Origin: a virus
Length of the DNA: 43,714 bases
Virus record (IMG/VR): IMGVR_UViG_3300049795_000032
Location: 1 to 43,714 of that record
Direction: 5' to 3' (one strand)
Part shown: positions 15,726 through 37,076 of the stretch, one piece after another
Layout: each line of letters opens with the position of its first letter
Position numbering within the stretch: the first letter of the stretch is position 1
The notes under the pieces: generated by a model
Databases searched by the model: none
The model's input: the letters and a program-made list of their open reading frames with translations, nothing else
What the model was told of the DNA's origin: nothing
Made by a program: the position numbers and the translations under genes

Positions 15726-15738
15726 GCTACCCTAGTGT
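15726..15738 (+). promoter_or_regulatory. GCTACCCTA motif copy 1 (late-promoter candidate) abutting a GTG start
   Basis: gGCTACCCTAgtgtGTG. The TACCCT hexamer ends 5 nt before the start codon at 15739. Confidence 0.55.
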
Positions 15739-16872
15739 GTGGCACTCCAAGTATTACGCATTGACGTGACCTCTGGCTCTCTCTCCAAAGCGATCGAGCT
15801 TGCGGACGGTTCATTGCGCATCCCTGCCCGCGTCGCACGCACGGGCGTGCAGGTCTACCAATATGCGGATGGAAGCACGGTCAGGGAATACCGTTCCCCT
15901 GCCGAGGTATTCTCTAAGGATGCCGTCCAGTCATTCGATGACGTGGCCGTGACCATCGGGCACCCCCTCTCGCCCGTGTCACCCGTGAACTGGAATTCCC
16001 TTGCCAAGGGACATATCGACGATCCGCAGAAATCGGAAACGTTTCTGACCGCGGATGTCATTGTCAAGGATGCCGCCACGATCAACGCGATCAAGGCCGG
16101 CGATTTGGTAGAATTGAGCGCTGGGTATTACGTCACGGTCGACCCTACGCCAGGCGTCACGCCCGAGGGCGAGCCCTACGATGCCGTGCAAACGAATATC
16201 GTAGGCAACCACGTGGCGCTGCTCCCCAAGGGGCAAGGGCGCGCGGGCCCTGACGTGCGACTTTATGCGGACAGCAAGGATGGATCCGCGATTTGCTACC
16301 CTAAGGTCGAACCCGATAACGCACCGTCAACGGAGATTGCACCAATGGCCGACAAGATCACGACCGAAGCCCGCACCGATAATGCCCCGGTTGTGCCCGT
16401 CGCAGTGTATGACAAGGCGTGCGCGGAGCGAGACGCGGCCCTCGCCAAGCTCGCGACCGTCGAGAGTAATGTCACCAAGGCGGATTCGGCCCTTGCCGAT
16501 CGTGTTGCCCGTCGCGTGCTCGCTTGCCGAGTTGATTCGAGCGAAGCAACGATCAAGCTCGCTACCGATTCCAAGGTGAGCGACCGCGACGTCATGGTGG
16601 CGGTCATTGCCGCCAAGCGCCCGAGTATCAAGCTCGATGGCAAGAGCGACGAATACGTGGCCGCGATGTTCGACGTGTGCGCCTCGGAAGCGCAGACCGA
16701 TACCGCCGCGCGTAATGACGCGAAGCGCGCGAACACGCAAGCTGTGAGCGGTCTCGTCAATGCGCTTACCGGAGCGGATAAGCCACTCGAGCAACGTAAT
16801 GACGGAGTCGAGGATATGGCCGAACGCGCCAAGCAAGAACGCGATCGTAAGAACCGCGGAATCAAAGCCTGA
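15739..16872 (+). CDS. DUF2213-type prohead scaffold/protease-like protein
   Basis: Motifs ARVARTGVQVYQY, VTIGHP, ELSAGYY and VGNHVALLPKGQGRAG match my recollection of DUF2213. The helical, charged C-terminal half looks like scaffold. Lies upstream of the capsid gene. Confidence 0.6.
   Translation: MALQVLRIDVTSGSLSKAIELADGSLRIPARVARTGVQVYQYADGSTVREYRSPAEVFSKDAVQSFDDVAVTIGHPLSPVSPVNWNSLAKGHIDDPQKSETFLTADVIVKDAATINAIKAGDLVELSAGYYVTVDPTPGVTPEGEPYDAVQTNIVGNHVALLPKGQGRAGPDVRLYADSKDGSAICYPKVEPDNAPSTEIAPMADKITTEARTDNAPVVPVAVYDKACAERDAALAKLATVESNVTKADSALADRVARRVLACRVDSSEATIKLATDSKVSDRDVMVAVIAAKRPSIKLDGKSDEYVAAMFDVCASEAQTDTAARNDAKRANTQAVSGLVNALTGADKPLEQRNDGVEDMAERAKQERDRKNRGIKA
16295..16303 (+). promoter_or_regulatory. 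GCTACCCTA motif copy 2, internal to the scaffold/protease gene
   Basis: atttGCTACCCTAAGGtcg. It is 42 nt upstream of in-frame ATG 16345, which has a GGAG 10 nt upstream. Confidence 0.4.
16345..16872 (+). CDS. Possible nested in-frame scaffold product (C-terminal 175 aa of the 15739-16872 gene)
   Basis: In-frame ATG (M203) with GGAG upstream and an internal motif copy. The product MADKITTEARTD... is helical and charged. Confidence 0.3.
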   Translation: MADKITTEARTDNAPVVPVAVYDKACAERDAALAKLATVESNVTKADSALADRVARRVLACRVDSSEATIKLATDSKVSDRDVMVAVIAAKRPSIKLDGKSDEYVAAMFDVCASEAQTDTAARNDAKRANTQAVSGLVNALTGADKPLEQRNDGVEDMAERAKQERDRKNRGIKA

Positions 16873-16919
16873 CCTGAACGAGCACGGACCAAAGAAAGCA
16901 ATAGGAGCTTAGCAAGACA

Positions 16920-17417
16920 ATGGCGCAAACTGGTACCTACTCGTTCGATCGTGCGGTTGCTGTCCCCGGAATGACGGATGACGGCCCGAAGGAAATCGAC
17001 ACCTTTATCGCGTACGAAGATCTCCCCTTCGGTCGCGCGGTTCGCCTGCACACGGGCACCACCGATCAAGTGGAATTGCCCACGGACGACTCCGGCGCGA
17101 TCGTTGGATTCGTCGTTTACAAGGATATGCTGGAAATGGCATACCCGCCCGCTGGCGCCGCAGTGATCAAGGCAGGCACCCCGGTCGCAATCCTGCGTAA
17201 AGGCCGCATGTGGGCCGCTTGGGATGGCGCAGGTACTGTCGCTGTGTTTACGCAATTCAACATCCGCAACAATGCCGCCGCGCCCACGACCAAGGGCATG
17301 GTTACTGCGGCCGCAGCGTCCGCGGACGTCGTTCGCGCGGGCACTCGCGGCACCTTTTACAAGGCGCGCAAGGATGCCACGCTCGGCATTGCGCAAATCG
17401 AAGTCTCGCTCCCGTGA
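16920..17417 (+). CDS. Head decoration/cement-like structural protein
   Basis: 165-aa ORF between the scaffold and major capsid genes, with AGGAG upstream. Function assigned by position only. Confidence 0.4.
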   Translation: MAQTGTYSFDRAVAVPGMTDDGPKEIDTFIAYEDLPFGRAVRLHTGTTDQVELPTDDSGAIVGFVVYKDMLEMAYPPAGAAVIKAGTPVAILRKGRMWAAWDGAGTVAVFTQFNIRNNAAAPTTKGMVTAAAASADVVRAGTRGTFYKARKDATLGIAQIEVSLP

Positions 17418-17465
17418 TCGGGTGACACGCACCACAGCAGAAAGCACGCAAAGGAATCACCTGTC

Positions 17466-18473
17466 ATGAAAAGCGCTCTTATCCGTCAATTGCTCGCACA
17501 GTCGCTGCCTCAAGTCGATCCGCAGTACGGGCAAGCCCGTCCCGATGGTCGCGGGTTGCATGGCGACGCAAACGAGACCGCGCTTTTCGCGCGTCAATTG
17601 GAGTACGTTTTCACGGAGCTTTACCGCTTCGAGTACCCCGACGCGATTGGACGCACGATCGTCCCCCTCGATTTCAGCGTGCCCACGGGTGCGAATTCGC
17701 ACACGTATCGCATGCTCGATCAAGTCGGAGAGGCGACGATCGGTGACTCCTACGCCACGGACGTGCCGTATGTCGACGTCAAGGGCCAAGAGAACAGCCA
17801 GAAGATCGTTCCGATTTTCTCGGGCTTCTATGTGTCGATGCAAGACCTTCGCGCCGCTGCGATGTCGGGCGTGCCTATCGACCAAGAAAAGGCCGAAACC
17901 GCGCGCATTGCAATCGAGCAACGGCTTGACGCAGCCCTCGCGGTGGGTGAATCGTCCGTGAGCCTTACGGGTTTCGCGAATGACGCCAACGTCACCGCAT
18001 CGGCCCTCTCGGGGCTCACGGGTACTTGGTCAGGCGCGACCGCCGCGCAGATCCAGGCCGACCTGGAATTGATCGCGAAGACCATTTTCGATCAAACCCT
18101 CGGCATCCGAGGCAATCCCGAGAACGGTACGCAAATCGATCTCGTGCTCCCGACTACGCTGTATAGCATCCTCTCCACCAAGAGGATTGACACGTACAAC
18201 ATGATGACGGTACTCGAGTACGCTCGTACCAAGATGCCCATGATCAAGTCGATCAAGCCGTGGGGTCGACTCAATACCGCGGGCGCTTCCAACGTCGCGC
18301 GTATCGTCGCCTTCCACAACGATAAGCGCGTTGTGCAAGGCATCATCTCGCAAGATTTCGAGATCATGCCGATGCAGCCCAAGGGCTTCGGTTGGTCCGT
18401 CCCCTGTCACATGCGCTTTGGAGGGACCGTCGTGCGTTACCCCAAGGGTATGCGCTACATTGACGGCTGCTGA
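17466..18473 (+). CDS. Major capsid protein (HK97-fold, DUF2184-like)
   Basis: 335 aa. Position after scaffold and decoration genes fits the DUF1073 portal / DUF2213 / DUF2184 gene set. Followed by the strongest terminator in the window. Confidence 0.7.
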   Translation: MKSALIRQLLAQSLPQVDPQYGQARPDGRGLHGDANETALFARQLEYVFTELYRFEYPDAIGRTIVPLDFSVPTGANSHTYRMLDQVGEATIGDSYATDVPYVDVKGQENSQKIVPIFSGFYVSMQDLRAAAMSGVPIDQEKAETARIAIEQRLDAALAVGESSVSLTGFANDANVTASALSGLTGTWSGATAAQIQADLELIAKTIFDQTLGIRGNPENGTQIDLVLPTTLYSILSTKRIDTYNMMTVLEYARTKMPMIKSIKPWGRLNTAGASNVARIVAFHNDKRVVQGIISQDFEIMPMQPKGFGWSVPCHMRFGGTVVRYPKGMRYIDGC

Positions 18474-18492
18474 TTAGCACAGCGACTTACTT

Positions 18493-18524
18493 ACGCCCGC
18501 GGACCAGTGCCGCGGGCGTTTTTC
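18493..18524 (+). terminator. Rho-independent terminator after the capsid gene
   Basis: Perfect 10-bp stem acgcccgcgg/ccgcgggcgt, 7-nt loop, then a T-run. Confidence 0.85.
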
Positions 18525-18530
18525 ATTTCC

Positions 18531-18543
18531 GCTACCCTAGTGC
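18531..18543 (+). promoter_or_regulatory. GCTACCCTA motif copy 3 abutting an ATG start
   Basis: cGCTACCCTAgtgcATG. The hexamer ends 5 nt before ATG 18544. Confidence 0.55.
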
Positions 18544-18825
18544 ATGCTGCTCGCGGCGTTTCGGATTCGCTTTCCCGAGCTAAAGCAAGCGGTGGATCAA
18601 TTGGTCCAAGCTTCGCTAGACGCGGCCGCATTGTCCGTGGATCCGGTCGTGTGGGTTGAGAAGTACGACGAGGGGCACGGATTGCTAGCGGCGCACTTGC
18701 TTACTCTCAGTCCCTTCGGTCAAGCCGTGCGCCTCGTGACCAATAACGACAAGTCTACCACGTATCTCGCTCACTATCAGCGCATGCAAGTCAATCTCGG
18801 GGATGCGCATTTCTTGGTGCTGTGA
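18544..18825 (+). CDS. Head-tail adaptor (DUF4054-like)
   Basis: 93 aa. FRIRFPEL...DEGHGLLAAHLLTLSPFGQ resembles DUF4054 connector proteins. First gene after the capsid. Confidence 0.5.
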   Translation: MLLAAFRIRFPELKQAVDQLVQASLDAAALSVDPVVWVEKYDEGHGLLAAHLLTLSPFGQAVRLVTNNDKSTTYLAHYQRMQVNLGDAHFLVL

Positions 18826-19355
18826 TGGCAGGTAAAGCAACCGTCAAAGTCATTCGATTGACTGACAGGGGCCTTAGGTCCGCTGTCAAAAAGCTGTTCG
18901 GGCTCCAACGCGCTAGCGTCAAGGTGGGCGTGTTTGGCGATAAAGGCGATGCGCAAGAGACAGGAAGCAGCCTCACCGTATCGGAGATTGCTGCGGTGCA
19001 CGAGTTTGGTCTTGGTGTCCCCGAGCGTTCTTGGTTGCGTGGATACATCGATGAAAATCAAGAGAGCATCGCGCGCGCTGCATTGCTCATTATGACTAAG
19101 ACGCTCGCTCGAGTGGTCGCCAGTGGCAAGCCCGTATCCCCGGGCGTGCAACGCGGTGCGCTCGCCAAGCTCGGCATGTTCATGGTCGCAGGCATTCAAG
19201 AGCGCATGACAGCGGGTATTGCCCCCGAGCTGGCGCAAAGCACTATCGATCGTAAAGGTTCGAGCACGCCGTTGATAAACACGGGGCAGTTGCGCGCTTC
19301 CGTCACGTATGAAGTAGACCTTGACGGCTCTGTCTCTAAAGGGGTGGAGACATGA
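18825..19355 (+). CDS. Head-tail joining protein (HK97 gp10-like)
   Basis: IAAVHEFGLGVPERSWLRGYIDE motif. ATG 18825 overlaps the upstream stop (TGATG); the track lists GTG 18822. Confidence 0.5.
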   Translation: MAGKATVKVIRLTDRGLRSAVKKLFGLQRASVKVGVFGDKGDAQETGSSLTVSEIAAVHEFGLGVPERSWLRGYIDENQESIARAALLIMTKTLARVVASGKPVSPGVQRGALAKLGMFMVAGIQERMTAGIAPELAQSTIDRKGSSTPLINTGQLRASVTYEVDLDGSVSKGVET

Positions 19356-19996
19356 GCACGCCGCAATTCCCCGCGGCCGTGTTCAAGGATACGGTCCAAG
19401 CCCTGGCGGGCCCGTATGTGCCCGTGGCTTGGGATAATGAGCCCATGCCCGTAGACGTGTTCTCGGGCCTCGACGCCAACGGCGTGCCCTTGGTTGGAGT
19501 CACCCAAGCGAGCACCGTGGCGGACGCAGGGCTGCCCTGTTCTATTGAGCTGGCCATCACTTCCGCGACCGGCTTGGGGGTGGACGAGTATCGCAGGCTG
19601 TATCACGCCGAAAGTGTCCCGGCCGCGGGCGATGATTATCAGGACGTGACCGTGGTAGGACATCGCGCGCTCACCGTCACGATGAAAGTCATCTCTGACG
19701 TGCTGCCTATTGCCTTGGACGTGGCGGAGAGAATCCGCACGCGCGTCTATTGGCCGTCCTCCCTCAATCGTTTGCGCGCAGGGGGGCTTACCGTGCGCCA
19801 AGTGGGGCAGGCCCGGACCATTCCTGGACCTAATCGCGACAATCGAGTGGTTGATTACGTGATCGTTGAATACTTCCTTTACTTCGTGTCGTCGGAAACG
19901 GACCCCCTTGGGGAGACTGAGGAAGTGACGGGGTATCCAACCACTAAAAACAATTACATAGCGGCCGTGACGACCACGTTTACCAAGGTGCCGTAA
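19352..19996 (+). CDS. Hypothetical neck/tail-completion protein
   Basis: 214-aa ORF with an ATGA overlap. Function by position only. Confidence 0.35.
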   Translation: MSTPQFPAAVFKDTVQALAGPYVPVAWDNEPMPVDVFSGLDANGVPLVGVTQASTVADAGLPCSIELAITSATGLGVDEYRRLYHAESVPAAGDDYQDVTVVGHRALTVTMKVISDVLPIALDVAERIRTRVYWPSSLNRLRAGGLTVRQVGQARTIPGPNRDNRVVDYVIVEYFLYFVSSETDPLGETEEVTGYPTTKNNYIAAVTTTFTKVP

Positions 19997-20733
19997 TGCC
20001 TAACGAGACCGTTTACCTCGGCCAAGGCGGGAATGCGCAGAACGCTATTAATCTCGTGGGAGATGGACAATGCTCCGTCAACGCTGATAGCGTAATCGTC
20101 GCTCTCGGCGCGGGTCAATACTCCAAACGACTAATTATCGTCAACGGATCGGCCCCCTTGGGCGTTGTGTTCCCCGTACTTCGCGGCGCGGCGTGGCTTA
20201 TTGACGTACGTTCGGCGGGGGATTGCCCCGTAACCACGACGTTCGGGACGCTCGATCTCCCAACTGGCGTATATCTGCTTTGGATCAACGATGACGGCTT
20301 GCCCAAAGCCGCGAGCTTTACCCCGCTCGGGTCCATCCCTATCAATTCGCTCTCTGTTGCTGGCGCGTTGGCGGGATATGTAATCACGTTCAACGGTACG
20401 AACGTCGTTTGGTCGGCCCCTACAGGGGGTGCGAGCAACCCGGATATTGTCCATAACTCGAGTACGGGCACCGTTACGCTCGTGCGCAAGGCTTATCAAA
20501 TCGTTGTGCACCATGGAGACTCTGCAGGTAACTGCACGTACAGATTTCCGGCTGCTCCTACGGATTTAGATATTGTGGAATTTGTTCGAGGCAATCCCCT
20601 CTCGGATGCCACCACCCCGTCATTCGACGGCAACAGTCACAACATCGACGGGGCAAGCGGATGGTCTAACACGTCGCTGCTTTCGGGGCAGTGGAGATTT
20701 TACGCGGGTGGCGAGAACGTTTGGAGATCCTGA
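19996..20733 (+). CDS. Hypothetical structural protein
   Basis: 245-aa ORF with a TAATG overlap. Confidence 0.4.
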   Translation: MPNETVYLGQGGNAQNAINLVGDGQCSVNADSVIVALGAGQYSKRLIIVNGSAPLGVVFPVLRGAAWLIDVRSAGDCPVTTTFGTLDLPTGVYLLWINDDGLPKAASFTPLGSIPINSLSVAGALAGYVITFNGTNVVWSAPTGGASNPDIVHNSSTGTVTLVRKAYQIVVHHGDSAGNCTYRFPAAPTDLDIVEFVRGNPLSDATTPSFDGNSHNIDGASGWSNTSLLSGQWRFYAGGENVWRS

Positions 20734-20736
20734 CTC

Positions 20737-21864
20737 ATGCTCAATTTCCCCTTTGATAGACTCCTCGCGCTTCTCCCGGCTAGCCTCGGGCAGAAAGTCA
20801 AATCGCTTTCTCTCGCTGTCACCATTGCGTCAGATCAGGATATTGCTACAGGCGCAAAGCAGGATGACCAGCAAACGGCGCTGGACAGCATCGATGGTAA
20901 GGTACTGAATTGCGATACTACAGATGTCACGATTACATCGCTACCTAGTGTAACGGTGGGTACGTGCGCGCTTCCCACTGGCGCAGCAACGGCCGCGAAG
21001 CAAGACACGGTCATTGCGGGGTTGTCGTCCATTGACGGGCACGTGGACGGATTGGAAGCTTCGTGCTCTAGCATCGACGGCAAGATTACCGCGTGCAATA
21101 CGGGTGCGGTTGTCGTTTCTTCTAGTGCGCTTCCCACGGGGGCCGCGACCAGCACGAAGCAGAGCGACGGCACACAGAAAACGCAAGTAGTTGACGGCTC
21201 GGGCAACGTGCAACCGAGCGGGGATACAGCGGCGCGACCCATTTGGGCCAAGCTGTCCGACGGCGCGGCGGCGCTGTTTGACGCAGCTGTACGTGCTGGC
21301 TTCGTCAAGCTTACTGACGGGACTAACACCGCAGCAGTCAAGGCTGCGTCCACAGCAGCAGCTGCGACCGATCCGGCCATTGTCGTAGCGCTAAGCCCTA
21401 ATCTTGGTGTCGTGCAAGGCGCTCCGGCCGCAGCCGGAGCGCCTTGGGCCGTAAGGCAGTCAGACGGCTCGGCGTTCTACACTGGCGCGAAAACCGGGCA
21501 GCTCCCAAGTGCATTGGGTACGGCAGTGATGTCCGCATCCTTGCCTGTAACGTTCGCGACCGATGACGCTGCGGTAAAGGCGCTCACTCCACAGGGATCC
21601 TGCACGACGCTCGCCGAGGTTACGACTGGTGCGAACACGACGGCAGCAGCCCTTAATTCCATGGCGGCGACGCACGGTGTGATTGTGCAGGCACATCCTA
21701 CTAATACGATAAATGTTAGAATTGGAGACAGCAATACGAGCTCCACTCGGGGTATTGCGCTCACACCAGGTAAAGCCATTTTCCTCCCCGTGACTAATGC
21801 AAATCAGATTACCTACTGTAATGAATCTAGCGTAGCCTCTAAAATCGAGGCATTGGCGATCTGA
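20737..21864 (+). CDS. Fibre-like structural protein with internal TGA(AT)xxKQ...SIDG repeats
   Basis: 375 aa. Contains ATGAKQDDQQTALDSIDGKV, PTGAATAAKQDTVIAGLSSIDGHV, SSIDGKI and PTGAATSTKQSDG. Ala/Thr/Gly-rich. Confidence 0.45.
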   Translation: MLNFPFDRLLALLPASLGQKVKSLSLAVTIASDQDIATGAKQDDQQTALDSIDGKVLNCDTTDVTITSLPSVTVGTCALPTGAATAAKQDTVIAGLSSIDGHVDGLEASCSSIDGKITACNTGAVVVSSSALPTGAATSTKQSDGTQKTQVVDGSGNVQPSGDTAARPIWAKLSDGAAALFDAAVRAGFVKLTDGTNTAAVKAASTAAAATDPAIVVALSPNLGVVQGAPAAAGAPWAVRQSDGSAFYTGAKTGQLPSALGTAVMSASLPVTFATDDAAVKALTPQGSCTTLAEVTTGANTTAAALNSMAATHGVIVQAHPTNTINVRIGDSNTSSTRGIALTPGKAIFLPVTNANQITYCNESSVASKIEALAI

Positions 21865-23138
21865 TGCCGGGATGGATGGCGATGGAAGGGAACCTACTCG
21901 TTACCGTGGACTGGGATCGACCAGTCTTCGTTCTTGACGGGGACGATAACCTTATTTTCAATTTCGATTTCTCCGCGCAGCCCCTATCCGACGGTACCAA
22001 CTCGGCAACGATCAAATCGGCCGTATCTGGTGCTGGATTCACTTACACGCGCGCTAGTGTCGCGACCTGTCAGACGAGCGCGAATGCAATCGTCACGAGC
22101 GGCATCGCTGTTGACGATCCGCGCATCGGCGACCGAGGCCAGGGGCGAGGGCTTTTCTCTGAGGACGGGCGCACTAACGTCTGTCAGCGTGCGCGCAACG
22201 TTGGCGGCACAGGTTGGGGCGCAGGCTCCACGGTCACGTCAGGACAGACCGGTCCTGACGGCGGTACATCGGCGGCGCGAGTCCAGACGACCAGCAGCGC
22301 AACAGGCACGTCGGTTACGTGCACCACGACAGCAAACTTCCGCTATGTGACGTCGGCTTGGGTCAAGGACGCCGGATCTGGTGGCTCCGAGCAGATGTCC
22401 ACGGCCGGCGCGTCGACCAACGCTGTTGCTACCACGCCCGGAGGCACATGGACTCGAATCGAGTACATCCACGCCGACACCGGGACCTCGCTCACGCTTG
22501 CGGCGGCCGATGGTACAGATCAGCATACGGTGGGCGGAACCACCGCTGGTGCCCGAGACACGCTCATCGATCTCGTCCAGCACGAGAACTCCGGCTCCAC
22601 GAGCGGAGGCGAAACACGGGCGACGTCCGCCATCATCACCACCGGCGCGAACGCGACCCGATCTCCAGACCGACTGAAGCTCCCGTGGGCTAAGTTCTCG
22701 GTCAACGGGCGCGCACGGTTGCGCATTCGTTTCATTCCGTTCTTCACGCTCTACTCGGAAGAAAGCGGCAACCGCTACCTTGTGAGCGACGGTACCGAGT
22801 ATTTCTACTTCTCGTCAGGCCAGCCTATCTGTCGTGTTGGAGGCACCAACTCCTCAGCTATGATCGGCTTCAGTCAGCCCGCGTGGGCGGTCGGCGATCT
22901 CGTCGAGATGTACTTGGAATTTGGGAATGGTTATCCCTATTTCGCCAGCCGAATCAACGGCGGCCAGCCGTACACCGTTCCGTCGTCGTCGACGGGATGG
23001 AGTGCCTCGCATACTACGCTGGCCCTCACAGCTGATCCGCACATCATGTCTTGGATTGACGGAACCCTGAAGCTCCAGGGCCTGATCCAGAACGTCAGCG
23101 GATATGCTTATGAATCTAAACCGGGGTGGGTGCCATAA
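21864..23138 (+). CDS. Hypothetical fibre or receptor-binding-like structural protein
   Basis: 424-aa ORF with a TGATG overlap. Ser/Thr/Gly-rich. Confidence 0.4.
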   Translation: MPGWMAMEGNLLVTVDWDRPVFVLDGDDNLIFNFDFSAQPLSDGTNSATIKSAVSGAGFTYTRASVATCQTSANAIVTSGIAVDDPRIGDRGQGRGLFSEDGRTNVCQRARNVGGTGWGAGSTVTSGQTGPDGGTSAARVQTTSSATGTSVTCTTTANFRYVTSAWVKDAGSGGSEQMSTAGASTNAVATTPGGTWTRIEYIHADTGTSLTLAAADGTDQHTVGGTTAGARDTLIDLVQHENSGSTSGGETRATSAIITTGANATRSPDRLKLPWAKFSVNGRARLRIRFIPFFTLYSEESGNRYLVSDGTEYFYFSSGQPICRVGGTNSSAMIGFSQPAWAVGDLVEMYLEFGNGYPYFASRINGGQPYTVPSSSTGWSASHTTLALTADPHIMSWIDGTLKLQGLIQNVSGYAYESKPGWVP

Positions 23139-23593
23139 TGCCCGTACAATCTGGCCTCGTTATGGCTGCAGCGGTTGTCTTGCTCTCCGACGACGGTAGC
23201 GGAAACGGAGAGGTAACGCCGTCGTCGCAGTTCGTATACCAAGGCGGCATTGACGTTGGGGGATACCCGGCGCGCGAATTCCGCCGGGAATCTGACGGAG
23301 CCCTGTTCATCTTACAGCGCATTCGCAGCGGCGGAACGCCGAAGAGATGGCTAGTTGTGGTGTGGACCGCATTCACGCAACGTGATCCAGCACTGACCGC
23401 GTTCGCAGCGCTCACTTCCGACCTAGGGGCGAACGTAATAAAGGGATGGCGCGTGACGCAAACTAGCGGCCGTCTCATGGTCCCGACGCTCGATAGCGAT
23501 GCGACCGCCGCCGGAACAGCGGTCAAAGCCGTATGGCCCGCGGAATGGGTGGACGGTAGCGGGGCTAGATTCGTAGGTAATGTAATTGCTTAG
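23138..23593 (+). CDS. Hypothetical protein
   Basis: ATG 23138 overlaps the upstream TAA (TAATG); the track lists GTG 23126. Confidence 0.5.
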   Translation: MPVQSGLVMAAAVVLLSDDGSGNGEVTPSSQFVYQGGIDVGGYPAREFRRESDGALFILQRIRSGGTPKRWLVVVWTAFTQRDPALTAFAALTSDLGANVIKGWRVTQTSGRLMVPTLDSDATAAGTAVKAVWPAEWVDGSGARFVGNVIA

Positions 23594-23602
23594 TTAGACC
23601 GC

Positions 23603-23611
23603 GCTACCCTA
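23603..23611 (+). promoter_or_regulatory. GCTACCCTA motif copy 4, upstream of the lysis cassette
   Basis: gcGCTACCCTAatatagaggactatcaactATG. GAGGA SD lies 9 nt before ATG 23631. Confidence 0.5.
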
Positions 23612-23630
23612 ATATAGAGGACTATCAACT

Positions 23631-23819
23631 ATGACTAAAGCTAAAGTGCTGGCCTACCTCCTTTCATTGGCAACTATTGCCGCCGCTGTGCAGGCGCAAC
23701 TCGCCACCACTGGCGCGAAAGTGCCTGCTTGGTTTGCTGGCGTGCTCGCACTTGCCACGCTCTTCGCCCCGCAACCGCATAAGAATGACGTGCAAGCGCC
23801 TAAGGAAGAAAGCAAATGA
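23631..23819 (+). CDS. Holin-like small membrane protein (two predicted TM segments)
   Basis: 62 aa. Hydrophobic segments VLAYLLSLATIAAAV and WFAGVLALATLFA, with a charged C-terminus. Lies two genes upstream of the endolysin. Confidence 0.5.
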   Translation: MTKAKVLAYLLSLATIAAAVQAQLATTGAKVPAWFAGVLALATLFAPQPHKNDVQAPKEESK

Positions 23820-24136
23820 CTGACAACCCTAATAGCCGTCTCGACGGATTCAACGATCCGCAATATCGGGCGGACGCTGCGGCTCTGGAGCAAGCTAAGA
23901 GCAAGTTCGATCACGCGTATTACGCGAAGCTCATTTCGGAGGCCCTTAATGGTGCATTGACCTTGGAAGATCTCCCCGACGACGTGCGTAAGCTTGTCGC
24001 TATGCCGGGGGGCGTGCAATCGTTGATCGATATCGTCAAAGGTACTGACTGGCCTGACGATTTCGGCGACTTGCGGGACGACGTTGACGCGCTCGTGAAG
24101 CTCGGGCGCATCTTCCTCGCCCTGTTCGGGGGTTGA
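23816..24136 (+). CDS. Hypothetical acidic protein within the lysis cassette
   Basis: 106-aa ORF with an ATGA overlap. Confidence 0.55.
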   Translation: MTDNPNSRLDGFNDPQYRADAAALEQAKSKFDHAYYAKLISEALNGALTLEDLPDDVRKLVAMPGGVQSLIDIVKGTDWPDDFGDLRDDVDALVKLGRIFLALFGG

Positions 24137-24138
24137 TC

Positions 24139-24999
24139 ATGTCCGAGCAGTGGGGTGTTTGCGAAGAGCCGTGCATCATTCTCGATGTCTCCCACTGGCA
24201 AGGGACTGACATTGATTTCCCCGCGTGTAAAGCGTTGGGAGTGCGCGGCGTTATCGTCAAACGCTACCACGGCTCGGGCTATGTCAAGGCTTACGATGAG
24301 CAATTCCCCTCCGCACAGCTCGCGGGAATTGAGCTGCTTGGGGATTACGCTTGGCTTGTCCCCACGTCTGTGCCCGTTGACTTGCAAGTCGCGGCATGGG
24401 CAACCCCCGCGAAGGGGAGACTTCCATTCACGATCGATTGGGAGGACCCTAGCACCAAGCTCCGGGGCAAGCCTCTCGTATCCATTCTCGAGCGGGCGAT
24501 TGAGATCAAGTCGGACAAGGATGGACGCAGGCCCACGATTTACACAGGCGCTTGGTACTGGCGGGACTTCTGTCAGGGCGTGGATAGCGAGATCGTTGCA
24601 GCGTGCGATTTGCATCTTGCCGCATACCCCCGCAAGACGAATACAGGCTTGAGGTACACCGAAGCGCAGCAAGAGGTATGCGGCGGGCACATGCCCGGCG
24701 TGCCACTCCCTTGGGCCAAGAGGGGTTTGCAGCCCTTGATCTGGCAATTCTCCGGGGACGCGCAGCCGCTTCGCTTGCCCCCGTCCAAGAACGGTGCGAG
24801 CCCTGCCGTGGACGTCAATACAGGGGACGCGCGTCGTCTGTTCGCGACGATCGACGCGCCCCCTGACACGCTGCCAGAAGGCGAGACGGGCCGGCGTAGA
24901 AGTAGTCAGCGTGTCAAGGCGTTTTCGGACGCCGCTACCCTATTGCGAGCGCCCGAAGGGGAGCACACTCCCATCGTACTTGAGAGCGAAAAAGAATGA
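24139..24999 (+). CDS. Endolysin, glycoside hydrolase family 25 (muramidase)-like
   Basis: ILDVSHWQGTDIDFPACKALGVRGVIVKRYHGSGY, LLGDYAWL and FTIDWED match the GH25 pattern. ATG 24139 is preferred over the TTG 24133 in the track. Confidence 0.7.
   Translation: MSEQWGVCEEPCIILDVSHWQGTDIDFPACKALGVRGVIVKRYHGSGYVKAYDEQFPSAQLAGIELLGDYAWLVPTSVPVDLQVAAWATPAKGRLPFTIDWEDPSTKLRGKPLVSILERAIEIKSDKDGRRPTIYTGAWYWRDFCQGVDSEIVAACDLHLAAYPRKTNTGLRYTEAQQEVCGGHMPGVPLPWAKRGLQPLIWQFSGDAQPLRLPPSKNGASPAVDVNTGDARRLFATIDAPPDTLPEGETGRRRSSQRVKAFSDAATLLRAPEGEHTPIVLESEKE
24934..24942 (+). promoter_or_regulatory. GCTACCCTA motif copy 5, inside the endolysin 3' end and 54 nt upstream of ATG 24996
   Basis: gccGCTACCCTAttgcgagc. 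Confidence 0.4.
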
Positions 25000-25280
25000 T
25001 GGAGCTTTCCCCGTCCCTGATCTTGTCCGCCGTTCTCGGTGCCGGGGGCGCATACGTCGCGGTGCGCACTGGACTTGCGCAAGTGACGACGATGATCGGC
25101 GTGCTCACATCCGCCGTGTCCGATCTCAAGGCTTCGTTCGAGAAAACTCGAGAGAGTCATGGAGAAGAGATAGGCGAATTGAAAGAACGCGTAGCAGTGC
25201 AGGGCGCGAATATCGCCACCCTTCAAATGCAAATGTCCAAGCTCCTTTCTACGGATCGATTCAAGGCCGTACGCGAATAA
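24996..25280 (+). CDS. i-spanin-like protein (or second holin): N-terminal TM plus coiled coil
   Basis: 94 aa. TM segment SLILSAVLGAGGAYVAV, then a heptad-rich segment. ATGA overlap with the endolysin. Confidence 0.4.
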   Translation: MMELSPSLILSAVLGAGGAYVAVRTGLAQVTTMIGVLTSAVSDLKASFEKTRESHGEEIGELKERVAVQGANIATLQMQMSKLLSTDRFKAVRE

Positions 25281-25288
25281 CGAGCCAC

Positions 25289-25297
25289 GCTACCCTA
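25289..25297 (+). promoter_or_regulatory. GCTACCCTA motif copy 6, upstream of the sheath gene
   Basis: cacGCTACCCTAAGGtaagtacaaATG. Confidence 0.5.
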
Positions 25298-25309
25298 AGG
25301 TAAGTACAA

Positions 25310-26626
25310 ATGAGCTTTCTTGACGATCTCGTTTCAATCTCCATTTCGGCTAGCACCAAGACGCCCACGCGTCCGGGCTTTGGTACGCCGCTGCTTCTGT
25401 CGCAAGAGAAGCCCGCGGGATGGGGCTCGGCTAAGGCTAAGTCTTTCGCGGATACGGATGCGCTCATTACCGCGGGATTCACGACTAACAGCCCGGTCTA
25501 TAAGGCCGCTGTCAAAGTCATGTCGCAAGACCCTGCGCCCGATCGATTCAAGGTAGGCATTCGCGCGCTCACCGTCGCGCATCACGTTACGCTGGTCGTC
25601 ACCATCGCCACCGAAGGGTACGTGTACGACTTTACGGTTGACGGCGTCCACATCCTTTACACGGTGCTCGCGTCCGCGACCACTAGCACGGTCGCCACTG
25701 CGCTCGCCCTGTTGATCACGGGCGGCACTACGGGCGCGACCGCTACGGCCAGCACGGCAACCATTACGGTTATCGCGGCTGCTGGTAAAGTGTTCGACGT
25801 GTCGGGGCATTACGAGAACGGTCTCACGCTTACGGACACCACTACGGATCCTGGCATCGCCACGGATCTCGCTGCGATTTACACGTTCGATTCGGATTGG
25901 TATGGCCTCGTGCCCGACCATTTCGGCAAGGCGGAAGCGCTCGCCGCAGCAGCGTGGATCGAGACGCACCGTAAGATCATGGTGGTCGACACGGCCGACA
26001 CGGCTGTCATGGACAGCGGTTCGACCACGGACATCCTGTATGCACTGAACGCGCTGGCGTATACGCGCACCGCTGTCATGTTCTCGCGTAACCAGCTCAT
26101 GCACTACCAAGGTGCGGCGTGGCAAGGTTCGCGTCTGCCGCAAACGCCCGGCAGTGATACTTGGAAATTCAACGCGCTGGTCGGGTGCGTCGCCTCCAAT
26201 TTCACGTCAGCCGAACGCGACGCCATTCTCGCTAAGAAGGGCAACGATTACATCCGCGTCGCAGGCATCGATATGACCGAAGAGGGTTGGTCGGTCGCCG
26301 GAGAATTCATGGATACGGTCCGTTTCATTGACTGGCTCCAAGCCGAGGGGCAGATCCGAATCTTCGGACAGCTCACCGGGGGCCAGAAGATCCCCTACAC
26401 GGATGCCGGCATCACTTCCGTGTGCGGTACCCTGCTCGGCGCGCTTTACGCGGGCGTCAAGGCGGGAGGGCTTGCGAAAGACCCAGAGCCCACGATCACG
26501 GCACCCAAGGTGGACGATATCGATGTTTCCGACCGTGCCGCGCGTTTGGTCGAAGGCATCGAATTCACCGGCCGCCTTGCTGGCGCGATTCACAAGCTCA
26601 AGATCAAGGGCCGTCTCACGGTCTGA
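25310..26626 (+). CDS. Tail sheath protein (DUF3383-like)
   Basis: 438 aa. First gene of the canonical order sheath, tube, chaperone, tape measure. Confidence 0.6.
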   Translation: MSFLDDLVSISISASTKTPTRPGFGTPLLLSQEKPAGWGSAKAKSFADTDALITAGFTTNSPVYKAAVKVMSQDPAPDRFKVGIRALTVAHHVTLVVTIATEGYVYDFTVDGVHILYTVLASATTSTVATALALLITGGTTGATATASTATITVIAAAGKVFDVSGHYENGLTLTDTTTDPGIATDLAAIYTFDSDWYGLVPDHFGKAEALAAAAWIETHRKIMVVDTADTAVMDSGSTTDILYALNALAYTRTAVMFSRNQLMHYQGAAWQGSRLPQTPGSDTWKFNALVGCVASNFTSAERDAILAKKGNDYIRVAGIDMTEEGWSVAGEFMDTVRFIDWLQAEGQIRIFGQLTGGQKIPYTDAGITSVCGTLLGALYAGVKAGGLAKDPEPTITAPKVDDIDVSDRAARLVEGIEFTGRLAGAIHKLKIKGRLTV

Positions 26627-26641: not shown

Positions 26642-27073
26642 ATGGCCGAACCTAAAAACTACGATCTCAAGCGCCAGACGCTTTGCTGTATGGGCCTGCT
26701 CATCGATAGCGGCTTTGCAGAAGATGACGTGTTTACGCTCGCGCGTAACTCGCCGATCTTTACCCGCAAGGTGGGAGCGGACGGACAAGTCACGCGTTCA
26801 AAGACGAACGACAATAGCGGCATGATCACGATCAAGCTCCTCCAATCGTCGGAAGCGAATGCACTTCTTTCCGCGTTCGCCATCTTGGACAGCAAGGGCA
26901 ACAATGGATTGGGCGTGGGGCCACTCATCGTCAAAGATCTAGACGGCACTACGCTTATCAGCGGAACCTGTTGGGTGGAGAAGTGGCCCGACCTCACGCT
27001 CGGCAAAGAGGCTTCCGAACGCGAATGGCAACTTGGTTGTGATATCGATTTCATGCTCGTCGGCGGGAACTGA
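26642..27073 (+). CDS. Tail tube protein (DUF3277-like)
   Basis: 143 aa, directly after the sheath. TNDNSGMITIKLLQSSEANALLSAF resembles the family as I recall it. Confidence 0.6.
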   Translation: MAEPKNYDLKRQTLCCMGLLIDSGFAEDDVFTLARNSPIFTRKVGADGQVTRSKTNDNSGMITIKLLQSSEANALLSAFAILDSKGNNGLGVGPLIVKDLDGTTLISGTCWVEKWPDLTLGKEASEREWQLGCDIDFMLVGGN

Positions 27074-27084: not shown

Positions 27085-27093
27085 GCTACCCTA
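27085..27093 (+). promoter_or_regulatory. GCTACCCTA motif copy 7 abutting an ATG start
   Basis: agGCTACCCTAAGGGGtATG. The hexamer ends 7 nt before ATG 27100. Confidence 0.5.
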
Positions 27094-27099
27094 AGGGGT

Positions 27100-27624
27100 A
27101 TGGCTGATCCGCTGACATTTCAATCTCAATCCAAGCGCATTGGGGACACGACGTATTACGTCACGCCCCTCGGCTTCGTGCAAGCGCGTCAAGCGCTTGT
27201 CAAGCTGACTAACCTTATTGGCCCGGCTCTGCGCGAATTGTCTAGCGCGGAGCTTGGCAATTTGAAAGGCGAGCTGTCCGCATTGGGCGGGCTGCTGTCC
27301 GGGCTTGCGGATAAGGACTTGGTCTATTTTCAAGACCTGTTCGCGCCGAAAACTGAAATCGAACTGGACTACGAGCCCAGTAAGCGTCCGTACCTGCATA
27401 AGCCTTTGCCTACGGGGGGCTCACGTATTGAGTCGCACTTCGCACCCACGGGACCGCGCTTCGGAGATTATTTCGAGTGGCTCGTGTTCTGTATTCAGGT
27501 GAACTACGCACCTTTTTTCAAAGGCATTTGGGCGAAGGTCGCAGCGTCCAAAGTGCTCGGAAAGCAGGCGACGGAATCAAGCTCCAATTCCCCGACGGAA
27601 TCGAATGGTCCGAGTGGCGACTAG
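27100..27624 (+). CDS. Tail assembly chaperone (gpG-like, zero-frame product)
   Basis: 174 aa between the tube and tape measure genes. Contains a slippery heptamer. Confidence 0.65.
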   Translation: MADPLTFQSQSKRIGDTTYYVTPLGFVQARQALVKLTNLIGPALRELSSAELGNLKGELSALGGLLSGLADKDLVYFQDLFAPKTEIELDYEPSKRPYLHKPLPTGGSRIESHFAPTGPRFGDYFEWLVFCIQVNYAPFFKGIWAKVAASKVLGKQATESSSNSPTESNGPSGD

Positions 27625-31280: not shown

Positions 31281-31948
31281 AACAATGGAGCATAAACGAG
31301 GTAATCGAGCAGGGGATCGTGTCCGCATTGCGTTGGTTGCATGTCGCATTGCCCGGGCGCGTCAAGGCATACGACAAGGCAAGGGGTACAGCGGACGTAG
31401 AGATCTGCGTCAAGCTCCCGACGCGCACCTTACAGGACTTGATTTACTACTTTCCCCTCCCGACCATCCCCGATGTGCCCGTGGCGTGGCCTAGCGGGGG
31501 TGGATACTTCGTAGCAATGCCCCTTGCGGTGAACGATCCGGTGCTACTCGTGTTCGCTGACATCGCTATGGGCGAATACTTGGAGAATGCAGACATTAGT
31601 GACCCTGTAGATACGCGACGCCATAGCCTAGGCTACCCTATAGCAATCCCGGGAGGCGCACGCCCTAACCCTAAAGCGCTTTCCGATTTGCCTGATGACG
31701 GGGTAATCGTCGGTAAAGATGGGTCGGACCAACAAATCAAGATTGACAATTCGTTTATTTCTTTGGGAAAGGGCGCTACGGATTTCGCTGCGCTCGCTTC
31801 ACTGGTGAAATCCGAGTTGCAAGCCATAAAAACCATATTCGACGCACACACGCACCCCGTCCCGGCGGGGCCCGGGACTTCTAGCCCTAGCGCCACCCCC
31901 CTCAATCCCATTGGCGAAGTAAAAGCCACGCTAGTCAAAGCCAAATGA
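31277..31948 (+). CDS. Baseplate central spike (gpV / Mu gp45-like)
   Basis: 223 aa. OB-fold-like VPVAWPSGGGYFVAMPLAVNDPVLLVFAD and a C-terminal HTHPVPAGPG apex-like motif. Confidence 0.5.
   Translation: MKQWSINEVIEQGIVSALRWLHVALPGRVKAYDKARGTADVEICVKLPTRTLQDLIYYFPLPTIPDVPVAWPSGGGYFVAMPLAVNDPVLLVFADIAMGEYLENADISDPVDTRRHSLGYPIAIPGGARPNPKALSDLPDDGVIVGKDGSDQQIKIDNSFISLGKGATDFAALASLVKSELQAIKTIFDAHTHPVPAGPGTSSPSATPLNPIGEVKATLVKAK
31632..31640 (+). promoter_or_regulatory. GCTACCCTA motif copy 8, internal to the spike gene
   Basis: ctagGCTACCCTAtagc. No start codon nearby, so it may serve downstream baseplate genes or be non-functional. Confidence 0.3.
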
Positions 31949-35577: not shown

Positions 35578-35591
35578 CGGAGAATACCCAC

Positions 35592-35822: not shown

Positions 35823-35956
35823 CCTCGGCACGTGACGTGGCGCGCGCCGCGGGCAAGCTCGCTTTGACGACGCTGGTCGCCGCGCCGCTCGTGTTCCTCG
35901 GGTTGCTTTGGTACTTCCGCGGGATGCCGCCTGTTGACGGATTTGCGGAGCCGTGA
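35819..35956 (+). CDS. Hypothetical 45-aa single-pass membrane protein (below track cutoff)
   Basis: GTGA overlap with the lipoprotein stop. MTSARDVARAAGKLALTTLVAAPLVFLGLLWYFRGMPPVDGFAEP. Confidence 0.4.
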   Translation: MTSARDVARAAGKLALTTLVAAPLVFLGLLWYFRGMPPVDGFAEP

Positions 35957-35988
35957 GAACCTCGCCGCATAGCAGCGGCACGAATCCT

Positions 35989-36018
35989 AGCCCGGCCCCC
36001 TAAAAAGGCCGGGCTTTG
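35989..36018. terminator. Hairpin terminator between convergent operons
   Basis: agcccggcc-ccctaaaaa-ggccgggct, followed by tt. Confidence 0.6.
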
Positions 36019-36023
36019 ACTAT

Positions 36024-36479
36024 TTACCGCATGCGACTAAGGCGCCAAAGTCCAAGCGCGACAGCATCCATCATGTTGTGCGCTTGCGTCTTCGGTAGTT
36101 TGGGGATTCGTGCCAGCTCGGCGGGAAAGAGTACCTTTGACGCGCGTGCATGGTGCACGTCCTTAGGGACCTGCCCTTTCCATTCTGCAGGTTTCACCAG
36201 GGATGGAAGCACGCCGATCGATTCGAAGCGACCTCGCCAGCGGCCGACTTCCTCGGCCACTTGGATCAGATCATTGGGATCGCCCTTACTTTGCGCGGCG
36301 CGGTAGATTTGGGGAAGCTCGATTACCACGTTCAAGTGTGTCGGATGTTCGACCCATTCCAGGGGCCAAATGTCTTTAGAGGCGATGGACGTGACCCCGC
36401 ACGTATGCAGCTCACAGCTTGCGGTAAACAGCGCCCACCCCGTACAGCGACCCGGATCGATGGCCAATAAATATGCCAT
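36024..36479 (-). CDS. RuvC-like Holliday junction resolvase
   Basis: MAYLLAIDPGRCTGWALF (first catalytic Asp), VVIELPQ (Glu) and HNMMDAVALGLW (C-terminal Asp). 151 aa. Confidence 0.7.
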   Translation of the reverse strand: MAYLLAIDPGRCTGWALFTASCELHTCGVTSIASKDIWPLEWVEHPTHLNVVIELPQIYRAAQSKGDPNDLIQVAEEVGRWRGRFESIGVLPSLVKPAEWKGQVPKDVHHARASKVLFPAELARIPKLPKTQAHNMMDAVALGLWRLSRMR

Positions 36480-36485
36480 TGCTCG

Positions 36486-37013
36486 TTACCCTTTCGATGA
36501 CTTGGACAATTCCAGCAAGCGAGATTCCATCGCGGCAAGCTCCTCGGATGACGCGCCCGAGAGATCGATGTGAGTGTCTACCTTTTCGGTACTCTCCCCG
36601 CGCATGAGACGATCCAGCTTGACGATCGCCTCCGTCAAGCGGATCAAGTCCCCCGGGCGCAAGGTGGAGTGCGCGCCGGCTTCGACATCCGATAGGAGCT
36701 TTTCCATCTCGCGACGGACGACGGATCGCCCGAGCGCGGTAATCTCCATGTGCTCGGCGCTGATTTCCTCGGTCCGCTGCTCGAGCAGCGAGCGAATGGT
36801 GTCTTGCCGCACGCCGTCTAGGTGCTCGTCCCAAAGCGCAGCGCGTTGCGCCCAGTAGTGCGCCGCCATCCAATCCCGCACCTTGATTGGATCGACCCTG
36901 CGACCCTTCAAAAACACGATGAGAGCGCGACGAGGGCGGGCGTCGCGGAAAGCTTGGAACACTTCCCATGATTCGTCGGTATCGTACGGCTGGCGGTCCC
37001 AAGGGTTGGACAC
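36486..37013 (-). CDS. Terminase small subunit-like protein
   Basis: The N-terminal ESWEVFQAFRDARPRR...VRDWMAAHYWAQRAALWDEH resembles the HTH/WxxR pattern of a common TerS family, followed by a coiled-coil C-terminal part. GTG start with GGAGAC upstream. Confidence 0.45.
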   Translation of the reverse strand: MSNPWDRQPYDTDESWEVFQAFRDARPRRALIVFLKGRRVDPIKVRDWMAAHYWAQRAALWDEHLDGVRQDTIRSLLEQRTEEISAEHMEITALGRSVVRREMEKLLSDVEAGAHSTLRPGDLIRLTEAIVKLDRLMRGESTEKVDTHIDLSGASSEELAAMESRLLELSKSSKG

Positions 37014-37032
37014 GATACAAGTCTCCTACACT

Positions 37033-37061
37033 AGTATAGCGCAATTAGCAAGCGTGCAATT
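37033..37061 (-). promoter_or_regulatory. Candidate host-type promoter for the TerS-RuvC operon (-10 TATACT)
   Basis: Reverse complement reads ...TTGCAC/ATTGCA...TATACTagtgtaGGAGACttgtatcGTG. The -35 spacing is ambiguous (15-17 nt). Confidence 0.3.
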
Positions 37062-37063
37062 AG

Positions 37064-37076
37064 GCTACCCTAGTGC
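37064..37076 (+). promoter_or_regulatory. GCTACCCTA motif copy 9 abutting the portal ATG
   Basis: agGCTACCCTAgtgcATG. The hexamer ends 5 nt before ATG 37077. Confidence 0.55.

Follow-up and report, generated by a model that had tools for sequence, protein, structure and literature searches.

A nine-base word ahead of late genes in an uncultured myovirus-like phage resembles the core of a -35-less promoter that the phage's own sigma factor may read

The viral DNA IMGVR_UViG_3300049795_000032, analysed here over its full length of 43,714 nucleotides (nt) and called the window below, carries the nine-base word GCTACCCTA in its structural gene region, and this raises the question of what the word does and which protein reads it. 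A preliminary description took the word for a phage-specific late promoter at the starts of structural operons and pointed to a phage sigma factor, by the logic known from phage T4, as its reader. Judging from their sequence features, the GCTACCCTA sites are very probably promoters of some kind. As a whole, we lean towards the reading that GCTACCCTA is the core of a late promoter without a -35 element, that it gives leaderless late mRNAs and that it is read by the phage's own sigma factor; taken separately, the phage sigma as reader is likewise a claim that we favour only mildly.

Nine exact copies of GCTACCCTA were found in the window, all on the plus strand and none on the minus strand, and each position given in the preliminary description was verified. 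In 100 dinucleotide-preserving shuffles the mean was 0.09 copies and the maximum was 1, so composition-matched shuffles, which had been named as a possible source of comparable counts, fail to give nine. When one mismatch was allowed, only two more sites appeared, both on the minus strand, against 4.6 expected; since one-mismatch variants are not in excess, GCTACCCTA is an invariant word and does not head a family of degenerate ones. By itself, the hexamer TACCCT is present 25 times in the genome, and the 16 occurrences outside GCTACCCTA are close to chance (estimated at ~21 for any 6-mer). All nine copies lie within the rightward block of head, lysis, tail and portal genes, with none in the ~22 kb of replication genes. 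Six of the nine stand in short intergenic spacers, which by an estimate from the coordinates make up a few per cent of the late region, and seven end 4-53 nt upstream of the start codons that the preliminary description had named. The two ends of the window form an exact 127-bp terminal direct repeat (1-127 = 43588-43714), which indicates a complete, circularly assembled genome of ~43.6 kb and makes the nine copies the full set.

For comparison at syntenic positions, seven metagenomic phage genomes were used, which have portal or sheath proteins 40-57% identical to those of the window and were recovered by portal and sheath protein searches (pairs of locus labels from one genome are L085/L002, L088/L169, L086/L003 and L084/L001, the last being the closest relative). 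Four copies stand almost against a start codon. Copy 1 (15726-15734) has its TACCCT (15728-15733) 5 nt before the GTG (15739) of the protease/scaffold gene, the 9-mer ending 4 nt before it; syntenic sites are at L084 558 (GCTACCTCT) and L085 25, and a terminator-like plus-strand hairpin of 15 pairs, 10 of them G-C, lies immediately upstream (15684-15717). The hexamer of copy 3 (18531-18539) is 5 nt before the ATG (18544) of a DUF4054 (E217 gp27-like) head-completion gene, with syntenic sites at L085 2782, L087 4315, L088 653 and L006 4279. A second terminator-like hairpin on the same strand, with 10 pairs, nine of them G-C, followed by TTTTCATTTC (18493-18519), comes after the major capsid gene and directly precedes copy 3; the same layout of hairpin and then motif after the capsid gene was seen at L085 2782, L087 2147 and 4315, and L088 653. 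The two hairpin terminators of the preliminary description are thus real and strong, and since these two copies begin only ~10 nt after them, any restart of transcription must use the motif itself. In copy 7 (27085-27093), 7 nt separate the hexamer from the tail assembly chaperone ATG (27100), and the 9-mer ends 6 nt before it (syntenic sites L001 76, L087 11816 and L088 11777). In copy 9 (37064-37072) the hexamer is 5 nt before the portal ATG (37077) and the 9-mer ends 4 nt before it; syntenic sites are L001 9987, L002 9989, L087 (CTACCTT-N6-GTG) and L088 20997.

Another four copies stand farther from a start codon. Copy 4 (23603-23611) ends 19 nt before the ATG (23631) of a gene for a 62-amino acid (aa) protein with two hydrophobic stretches (holin-like), with AGAGGA in between, and has syntenic sites at L085 8093, L087 8069 and L084 7842. 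Copy 6 (25289-25297) ends 12 nt before the tail sheath ATG (25310), with an AAGG Shine-Dalgarno-like stretch in between, and syntenic sites were found at L084 9974, L085 9986, L086 4857, L087 (CTACCTT-N6-ATG) and L088 9989. Copy 5 (24934-24942) lies within the GH25 endolysin gene, at its 3' end, and the ATG (24996) of the gene for a 94-aa membrane/coiled-coil protein follows 53 nt farther on; counterparts at the end of the endolysin gene are at L084 9616, L086 2411 and L088 ~8355. Copy 2 (16295-16303) is inside the protease gene, in a non-conserved linker, 41 nt before an in-frame ATG (16345) with GGAG in between. The linker between the protease and C-terminal domains has GCTACCGTA in L084 (1134) and CCTACCCTA in L085 (622); the surrounding linker peptide is not conserved, although the motif stands there in the window, L084 and L085, and in all three genomes an in-frame ATG or GTG with a preceding Shine-Dalgarno-like stretch follows the linker motif within about 20 codons. 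From the ATG at 16345 runs a candidate nested scaffold open reading frame (ORF) of 175 aa (16345-16872, plus strand), in frame with the protease C-terminus and proposed by analogy to known nested protease/scaffold genes, and copy 2 would on this analysis be an internal promoter for the nested scaffold protein. Operon starts, as proposed, are not all that the copies mark, since two of them are internal, one to the protease gene and one to the 3' end of the endolysin gene.

Copy 8 (31632-31640) is different. It lies inside the baseplate gene (PF18352) and encodes the G-Y-P of RRHSLGYP.AIPG. The RRHSLGYP peptide is invariant in all seven genomes compared, written as GGC TAC CCT in four of the seven, and with CCC or CCA/TAT in the other three. 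With a CCT codon usage of 22%, copy 8 is at most weak evidence of selection at the DNA level. It was therefore downgraded as an independent promoter, as the peptide is invariant and three genomes use other proline or tyrosine codons, and it is probably a coding coincidence. There are thus probably eight credible promoter sites rather than nine.

The distance to the start codon was analysed in a pool of 26 start-adjacent sites from the window and its relatives. From hexamer to start codon it is 6 nt in 22 sites, 5 nt in three (all three from the window) and 7 nt in one; the start codon is ATG at 16 sites and GTG at 10, and the base preceding it is C or T at 23 of the 26. A sigma-70-type -10 hexamer spans -12 to -7, and initiation favours a purine after a pyrimidine ~7 nt past the hexamer. 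The fixed spacing together with the pyrimidine at -1 and the purine at +1 therefore puts the first base of the start codon at the expected transcription start, which would give a leaderless mRNA. The four closest-spaced copies (15726, 18531, 27085 and 37064) leave no room for a Shine-Dalgarno sequence and fit a -10-next-to-ORF leaderless pattern, as do the 26 family sites, and leaderless starts are likely at such close-spaced copies, as read from the sequence. A TANNNT a few bp upstream of ORFs is an experimentally validated promoter of leaderless genes in Deinococcus radiodurans and Thermus, with a spacing requirement, and -10-only fragments are sufficient as promoters in Deinococcus-Thermus (PMC12340547). 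The promoter reading of the preliminary description was largely right, and it had overlooked the main consequence of the geometry, namely that four of the nine transcripts would be leaderless. Taken over all sites the spacing is bimodal: the motif is either 5-7 nt from the start codon, or farther away (12-53 nt) with a purine-rich Shine-Dalgarno-like stretch (GGAG, AGAGGA or AAGG). Genes of these operons that have no motif (cement, capsid, tube and tape measure) have purine-rich Shine-Dalgarno-like stretches upstream. Such an either/or spacing fits a promoter and not a translational signal acting at a fixed distance.

The bases of the element were examined in 36 curated family sites, which were selected on TACCCT and aligned on the hexamer. 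Information was found only at -13 (C, 1.3 bits) and from -12 to -7; in the nine window sites, G at -14 and A at -6 come in addition, and GC precedes TACCCT in nine of nine. T(-12), A(-11) and T(-7) of the sigma-70-family -10 element are present in all nine copies. From -50 to -15 the 36 family sites hold no information above background, and a scan with the sigma-70 -35/-10 consensus gives no hit at any of the nine. The idea of a conserved -35 or UP-like element was accordingly rejected, with information upstream of -14 at background, in agreement with the earlier statement that no -35 is conserved. The TG of an extended -10 element at -15/-14 is absent, the window having G(-14) and C(-13) and the family as a whole only C(-13). 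Neither the AAC-containing -35 nor the CGT-type -10 of extracytoplasmic function (ECF) sigma factors was seen at the sites.

The genome also holds candidate promoters of a host type, both on the minus strand. The first (9804-9832) is TTGACG-17-GAGAAT, 6 nt before the ATG (9797) of the gene that opens the leftward replication operon, and the second (39592-39619) is TTGACC-16-TATTGT, 6 nt before the ATG (39585) of an ORF for 83 aa with hairpins after it. Two promoter classes are thus seen, a host-like one with a -35 and a variable -10, and a -35-less one with an invariant extended -10. Both share the leaderless layout, which suggests a host that translates leaderless mRNAs readily.

Sigma-S promoters, in which a -35 consensus is commonly taken to be absent, have the -10 consensus KCTAYRCTTAA, and the stationary-phase aldB promoter of E. 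coli is listed with the -10 element TACCCT (PMC5650638, citing Weber et al. 2005). GCTACCCT matches KCTAYRCT at seven of eight positions, including the diagnostic C at -13. The mismatch is at -9, which is C and not a purine; of the longer consensus, the TAA at -6 to -4 is also absent, only A(-6) being conserved in the window. By its sequence, the element looks like a sigma-S-type -10 box.

The relatives show which part of the word is shared. They share the gene order, with a Sigma70_r2 gene directly upstream of that for the large terminase. Exact copies of the 9-mer are rare in these genomes, and the core C-TACC(C/T)T is common and stands ahead of the same genes, that is the protease gene, the protease-internal linker, the gene after the capsid gene, the lysis genes, and the sheath, tail chaperone and portal genes. 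The core is thus present at equivalent places in relatives, where its absence had been named as a reason to give up the proposal; the motif is not phage-specific as had been claimed, since C-TACCYT is family-wide and only the flanks are specific to a genome. In L085/L002, CC-TACCCT-ACCGG precedes the genes for protease, sheath and portal, the linker inside the protease gene, the first lysis gene and the gene that follows the capsid terminator. L087 has C-TACCCT-CTGGGT-ATG ahead of five genes and CTACCTT-N6-ATG/GTG ahead of the sheath and portal genes, while in L088/L169 the sheath, tail chaperone and portal genes and the post-capsid gene have the motif ahead of them. In L084/L001 the conserved part is GCTACC followed by N-T/C-N, present at eight of nine positions syntenic with the window. 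Across the relatives the hexamer varies as TACCTT, TACCAT and TACCGT, with TACC kept and the final T mostly kept.

The combination of core, spacing and start codon was compared with order-2 Markov simulations, where the observed number is for the gene strand and the expected number for both strands together. CTACCYT-N5-6-RTG was observed seven times in L087 (0.48 expected), four times in L088 (0.15 expected), four times in L006 (0.20 expected) and four times in the window (0.30 expected). The motif also flips with gene orientation, as seen from back-to-back divergent copies in L001 and L002; in L002 the pair is at 9975 (minus) and 9989 (plus), the minus-strand twin serving the divergently transcribed neighbour of the portal gene. 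The L001 pair (9975-9995) is a perfect palindrome, aatGGTAGC/GCTACCatt, with back-to-back motifs for the portal gene and its divergent neighbour. L086/L003 has a cassette of ~35 nt three times before different genes (2390-2430, 4835-4875 and 7430-7472), made of a G+C-rich hairpin (ccccTCGGGAGGGGccc), TACCCT and tggggtgcgATG, and the spacing in this cassette is 9 nt, not 6. Some other words did not hold up. The minus-strand 'weaker relatives' of the preliminary description (2507-2518, 3468-3476 and 43471-43480) are at chance level, with neither conserved flanks nor synteny, and were dropped; a CCTACCCTC word 24 nt upstream of the tRNA-Gln gene fits the family core and is indistinguishable from chance. 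CGTACTGCG, considered as an alternative motif in L001, is in fact a tandem repeat in coding sequence at the end of the locus, and CTAGGG and CTTAAGG in L028 are merely abundant words on both strands.

The candidate reader is the 206-aa product of 42809-43429 (minus strand), whose gene overlaps the start of the large terminase gene. It matches Pfam Sigma70_r2 (E=5e-11) and TIGR02937 (E=9e-18, residues 17-168), and the gene is found beside the large terminase gene in every relative examined (the seven clearest ones), including L001, L002, L003, L169, L170 and L172. The earlier assignment as a sigma gene is therefore sound: it is a genuine sigma-70-family gene kept beside the large terminase in relatives. 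A profile of six members of this sigma family aligns over regions 2-4 with RpoS (3e-17), cyanobacterial SigA, and mycobacterial SigB and SigF, and its best match among solved structures is RpoS; the 206-aa protein itself is only ~30-40% identical to RpoS in region 2. By these alignments, the phage sigma is a shortened group-2/3-like factor, not a gp55-like minimal one and not obviously an ECF one. The clade is small and divergent, with 16 clusters at E<=1e-10 among 1.84 billion representative proteins, and a word-indexed homologue search with the sigma returned only itself.

In region 2.3 of the phage sigma, FYSYAKW keeps the equivalents of sigma-70 Y430 and W433. These two residues handle the -11 adenine in sigma-70, and region 2 captures T(-12), A(-11) and T(-7) in sigmas of groups 1-3, so that FYSYAKW fits the TA...T hexamer. 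The L001 sigma (16176-16826) is without the region-2.3 tryptophan (AKSHIRY against AKWKVLY), and the L001 promoters are relaxed at the last three positions (GCTACC-N-T/C-N); a covariation of the two is possible. A separate feature is CxxC...CxH (YCWKCKG..SCPHA) at the C-terminus of the phage sigma (42809-42850), which is shared with L001 (16176-16826) and L002 (14673-15455), not with the other three homologues, and may be a zinc-binding tail.

Put together, the preferred reading would work as follows. GCTACCCTA would be an extended -10-type element made of G(-14), C(-13), TACCCT from -12 to -7, and A(-6), with no need of a -35. Host RNA polymerase with its main sigma would first transcribe the leftward replication operon from the -35/-10 promoter near 9830, and this operon would take in the DNA polymerase gene and, beyond the circular junction, the sigma and large terminase genes. 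The phage sigma would then bring core polymerase to eight or nine rightward GCTACCCTA sites, which would turn on the genes for head, lysis, tail and portal as units that are each dosed separately. Since the sigma gene is at the downstream end of the leftward operon, a simple cascade suggests itself in which host polymerase makes the sigma and the sigma then activates the late genes; the temporal order of these events is what we infer from the arrangement of the genes. Counted from the final T of the hexamer, transcription would start 6-7 nt on. In the protease, DUF4054 and portal genes the A or G of the start codon stands at this place, which would give an mRNA without a leader, and for the tail chaperone gene, with its 7-nt spacing, the leader would be of 1 nt at most. 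The units of the sheath, the holin-like protein, the 94-aa protein and the nested scaffold would have short leaders carrying the Shine-Dalgarno-like stretch, and the copy inside the protease gene would produce a separate, more abundant transcript for the in-frame C-terminal scaffold protein.

Several observations speak against this proposal. The major capsid and tail tube genes have no motif copy of their own, and the large terminase gene, a late function, is likewise without the motif and lies within the leftward operon. The phage sigma has a region-4-like segment although no -35 is conserved at the sites, for which the proposal does not account, and the single-sequence AlphaFold model of the sigma, with a predicted local distance difference test (pLDDT) score of 40, is unusable. 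A host primary sigma is able to read TANNNT beside start codons with no -35 present (PMC12340547). Among the more distant genomes, L172 has nine C-TAnnnT-N5/6-RTG sites (1061-18017) with the hexamers TAACCT, TATCCT, TAGACT, TATTCT and TATCTT, and it also has a sigma gene beside its large terminase gene; L081 has eight gene-strand sites with variable hexamers, four of which carry GGCTAGACT (7992, 11337, 17617 and 19737). Such variable hexamers look like ordinary host -10 boxes, so that the layout is maybe a habit imposed by the host and the reader maybe a host sigma. The same layout with other hexamers in L081 and L172 could reflect either co-evolution of sigma and promoters or such a host habit.

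A host reader could be the housekeeping sigma of a host with -10-only or leaderless expression, for example of Deinococcus-Thermus or Actinobacteria, or an RpoS-like sigma, with the phage sigma doing something else. We consider this doubtful, even if several observations agree with it. TANNNT next to an ORF is a validated mode of host expression with active -10-only fragments (PMC12340547), GCTACCCT fits KCTAYRCT of sigma-S at seven of eight positions (PMC5650638), the two host-type promoters of the window share the N6-ATG leaderless layout, so that the host evidently copes with leaderless mRNAs, and the distant L172 and L081 have their varied TAnnnT hexamers in the same layout. However, a host sigma does not account for a 9-mer that is invariant within the genome, with no graded variants, nor for CC at -10/-9 and C at -13, which are kept across 40-57% protein identity and go beyond the TANNNT that a housekeeping sigma needs. 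The motif is also confined to late genes and lacks the TTGAC -35 of the host-type promoters. Finally, a host reader would leave nothing to delay the late genes and no target for the phage sigma, which is universally conserved.

The motif could also act in RNA, as a processing site at which an endoribonuclease would cut polycistronic late mRNA shortly before start codons, or as a site for a translational regulator or enhancer. It is indeed always on the coding strand and near start codons, and cleavage a few nt downstream would also yield leaderless mRNAs. On the other hand, the distances to the start codon fall into two ranges and are not fixed (5-7 nt, or 12-53 nt where a Shine-Dalgarno-like stretch intervenes), and two copies directly follow strong terminators, which would let little RNA from upstream reach them. 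What is conserved is the T, A ... T of a sigma-70-type -10 element, and pyrimidine at -1 with purine at +1 belongs to transcription initiation. By inspection, which was not scored, no anti-Shine-Dalgarno complementarity was seen, and Rfam finds only the tRNA. A role in RNA is thus quite improbable. Still less credible is a DNA site for another process, such as a Chi-like hotspot, a packaging or replication signal or a restriction/modification word: single-strand bias and over-representation also mark Chi-like and polar sequences, but such sites scatter in coding DNA, without the 5-6 nt start spacing, the intergenic placement or the flipping with divergent genes, no copy is in the replication half of the genome, and a candidate origin lies elsewhere with a different repeat.

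To return to the phage sigma as reader, a more detailed form of this proposal is offered tentatively, and all its parts together are rather unlikely to hold. A private, compact RpoS-like sigma would read the -35-less GC-TACC(C/T)T through positions -14 to -9 and fire leaderless late mRNAs, the protease-internal promoter would set the ratio of protease to scaffold, and from lineage to lineage the middle of the hexamer would change along with the sigma. As lineage forms for such a drift one may list TACCCT in the window, TAGACT in L081, and GCTACC-N-T-N in the closest relative, where the sigma is without the region-2.3 tryptophan.

Comparison with known systems shows that the principle is not new; phage sigmas are familiar, and so are -10-only late promoters and leaderless mRNAs. 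The nearest layout is the -10-next-to-ORF pattern of Deinococcus-Thermus, which likewise has TAnnnT at a short fixed distance from ATG/GTG, no Shine-Dalgarno sequence, a dispensable -35, and inner operon genes with Shine-Dalgarno-like stretches (PMC12340547). Unlike in that pattern, the middle bases and flanks are here invariant per genome (GC-TACCCT-A), CC at -10/-9 is conserved in the family, only late genes are concerned, and the phage encodes a sigma. Thermus phage phiYS40 reportedly has leaderless middle and late transcripts.

Phage sigmas with dedicated middle or late promoters include T4 gp55 with TATAAATA, SPO1 gp28 and gp33/34, and phiEco32 gp36. As in those systems, the sigma gene would here belong to an earlier unit and a short, near-invariant motif precedes late genes, and the T4 promoters are also -10-only. 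The motif itself is unrelated to TATAAATA, and no T4-type TATAAATA stands at these sites; gp55 is minimal and without region 4, whereas the phage sigma aligns with regions 2-4 of RpoS, SigA and SigB. The T4 gp55 analogy of the preliminary description is consequently a loose one, as the sigma spans regions 2-4 and the motif is nearer to sigma-S KCTAYRCT than to TATAAATA. No gp33-like or sliding-clamp co-activator turned up in our annotation of the genome, which is partial and not exhaustive.

With sigma-S promoters the element shares G/T(-14), C(-13), TAY.CT, and a -35 that is weak or absent (PMC5650638). The differences are the C at -9, the missing TAA after the hexamer and a candidate reader that is a 206-aa phage protein. 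To our knowledge, leaderless geometry is not a feature of sigma-S promoters. The start-associated sequences (SAS) of Cluster K mycobacteriophages are said to be a 13-bp word with a Shine-Dalgarno-like GGAG, thought to act in translation. They are alike in being a conserved coding-strand word just upstream of the start codons of some phage genes, and differ from the present motif, which has no GGAG-like core, has -10 features and stands 4-53 nt from the start codon.

If the preferred reading is true, a transcription map of an uncultured phage family would be obtained from sequence alone, comprising an early operon with a -35 promoter, a sigma gene at the end of this operon and eight -35-less late promoters. 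Leaderless expression from a -10 next to the start codon would then extend from host genomes to a phage late programme with its own sigma. A small sigma with a 9-bp target may be a possible orthogonal expression pair, and the lineage-specific hexamers would be a natural experiment on how sigma region 2 reads a non-consensus -10 middle.

The genome around these sites is that of a myovirus-like uncultured phage from a JGI metagenome, without a cultured close relative. Megablast of 24 kb of the window against 50,697 phage records gave no match, tblastn of portal and sigma against phages gave only distant matches (<=33% identity), and two scans of IMG/VR viral contigs with portal and sigma queries found no relatives. 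Scans of JGI metagenomes and GTDB genomes with a sheath profile gave only relatives of <=48% identity, in taxonomically mixed metagenome-assembled genomes (MAGs), and no host was assigned.

The minus strand carries, leftward, the replication genes and then, past the circular junction, the sigma and terminase genes; owing to this junction the latter two follow the DNA polymerase gene within a single leftward unit. The replication operon includes PD-(D/E)XK nuclease and helicase genes, the DNA polymerase A gene (229-2412, minus) and a single tRNA gene, tRNA-Gln with anticodon TTG (3371-3445, minus), the only RNA family found in the Rfam scan; the large terminase gene is at 41287-42816 (minus). 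On the plus strand are the primase-helicase gene (9877-12291), the head protease/scaffold gene (15739-16872; phrog_530, 1e-75), the cement protein gene (16920-17417), the major capsid protein gene (17466-18473) and the neck genes (18544-23593). They are followed on the same strand by the lysis cassette (23631-25280), which encodes the 62-aa holin-like protein, a 106-aa protein, the GH25 endolysin and the 94-aa membrane protein. The tail sheath gene starts at 25310, the tail tube gene at 26642 and the tail assembly chaperone gene at 27100, with tape measure, baseplate and fibre genes up to ~35.8 kb, and the portal gene starts at 37077 and is followed by a gene for a Mu-F-like protein, all on the plus strand.

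Some further features were noted outside these genes. An ORF at 43383-43700 is doubtful as a real gene, its product being a low-complexity Arg/Ser-rich sequence. The minus-strand cassette at 39240-39619 consists of the second host-type promoter candidate, the 83-aa ORF, which has no Pfam match, and two hairpins after it, and by appearance is an independently transcribed, leaderless 'moron'-like gene. Just upstream of the first terminator-promoter pair is a 192-aa ORF (15013-15591) without family match, with KGKGKGKGK at the C-terminus of its product. About 12 copies of GTTACGGT/ACCGTAAC lie at 13790-14093, in four clusters of alternating orientation around an AT-rich core (~13915-13960), and the array, situated between the early and the late block, may be an origin of replication with iterons, or an operator array.

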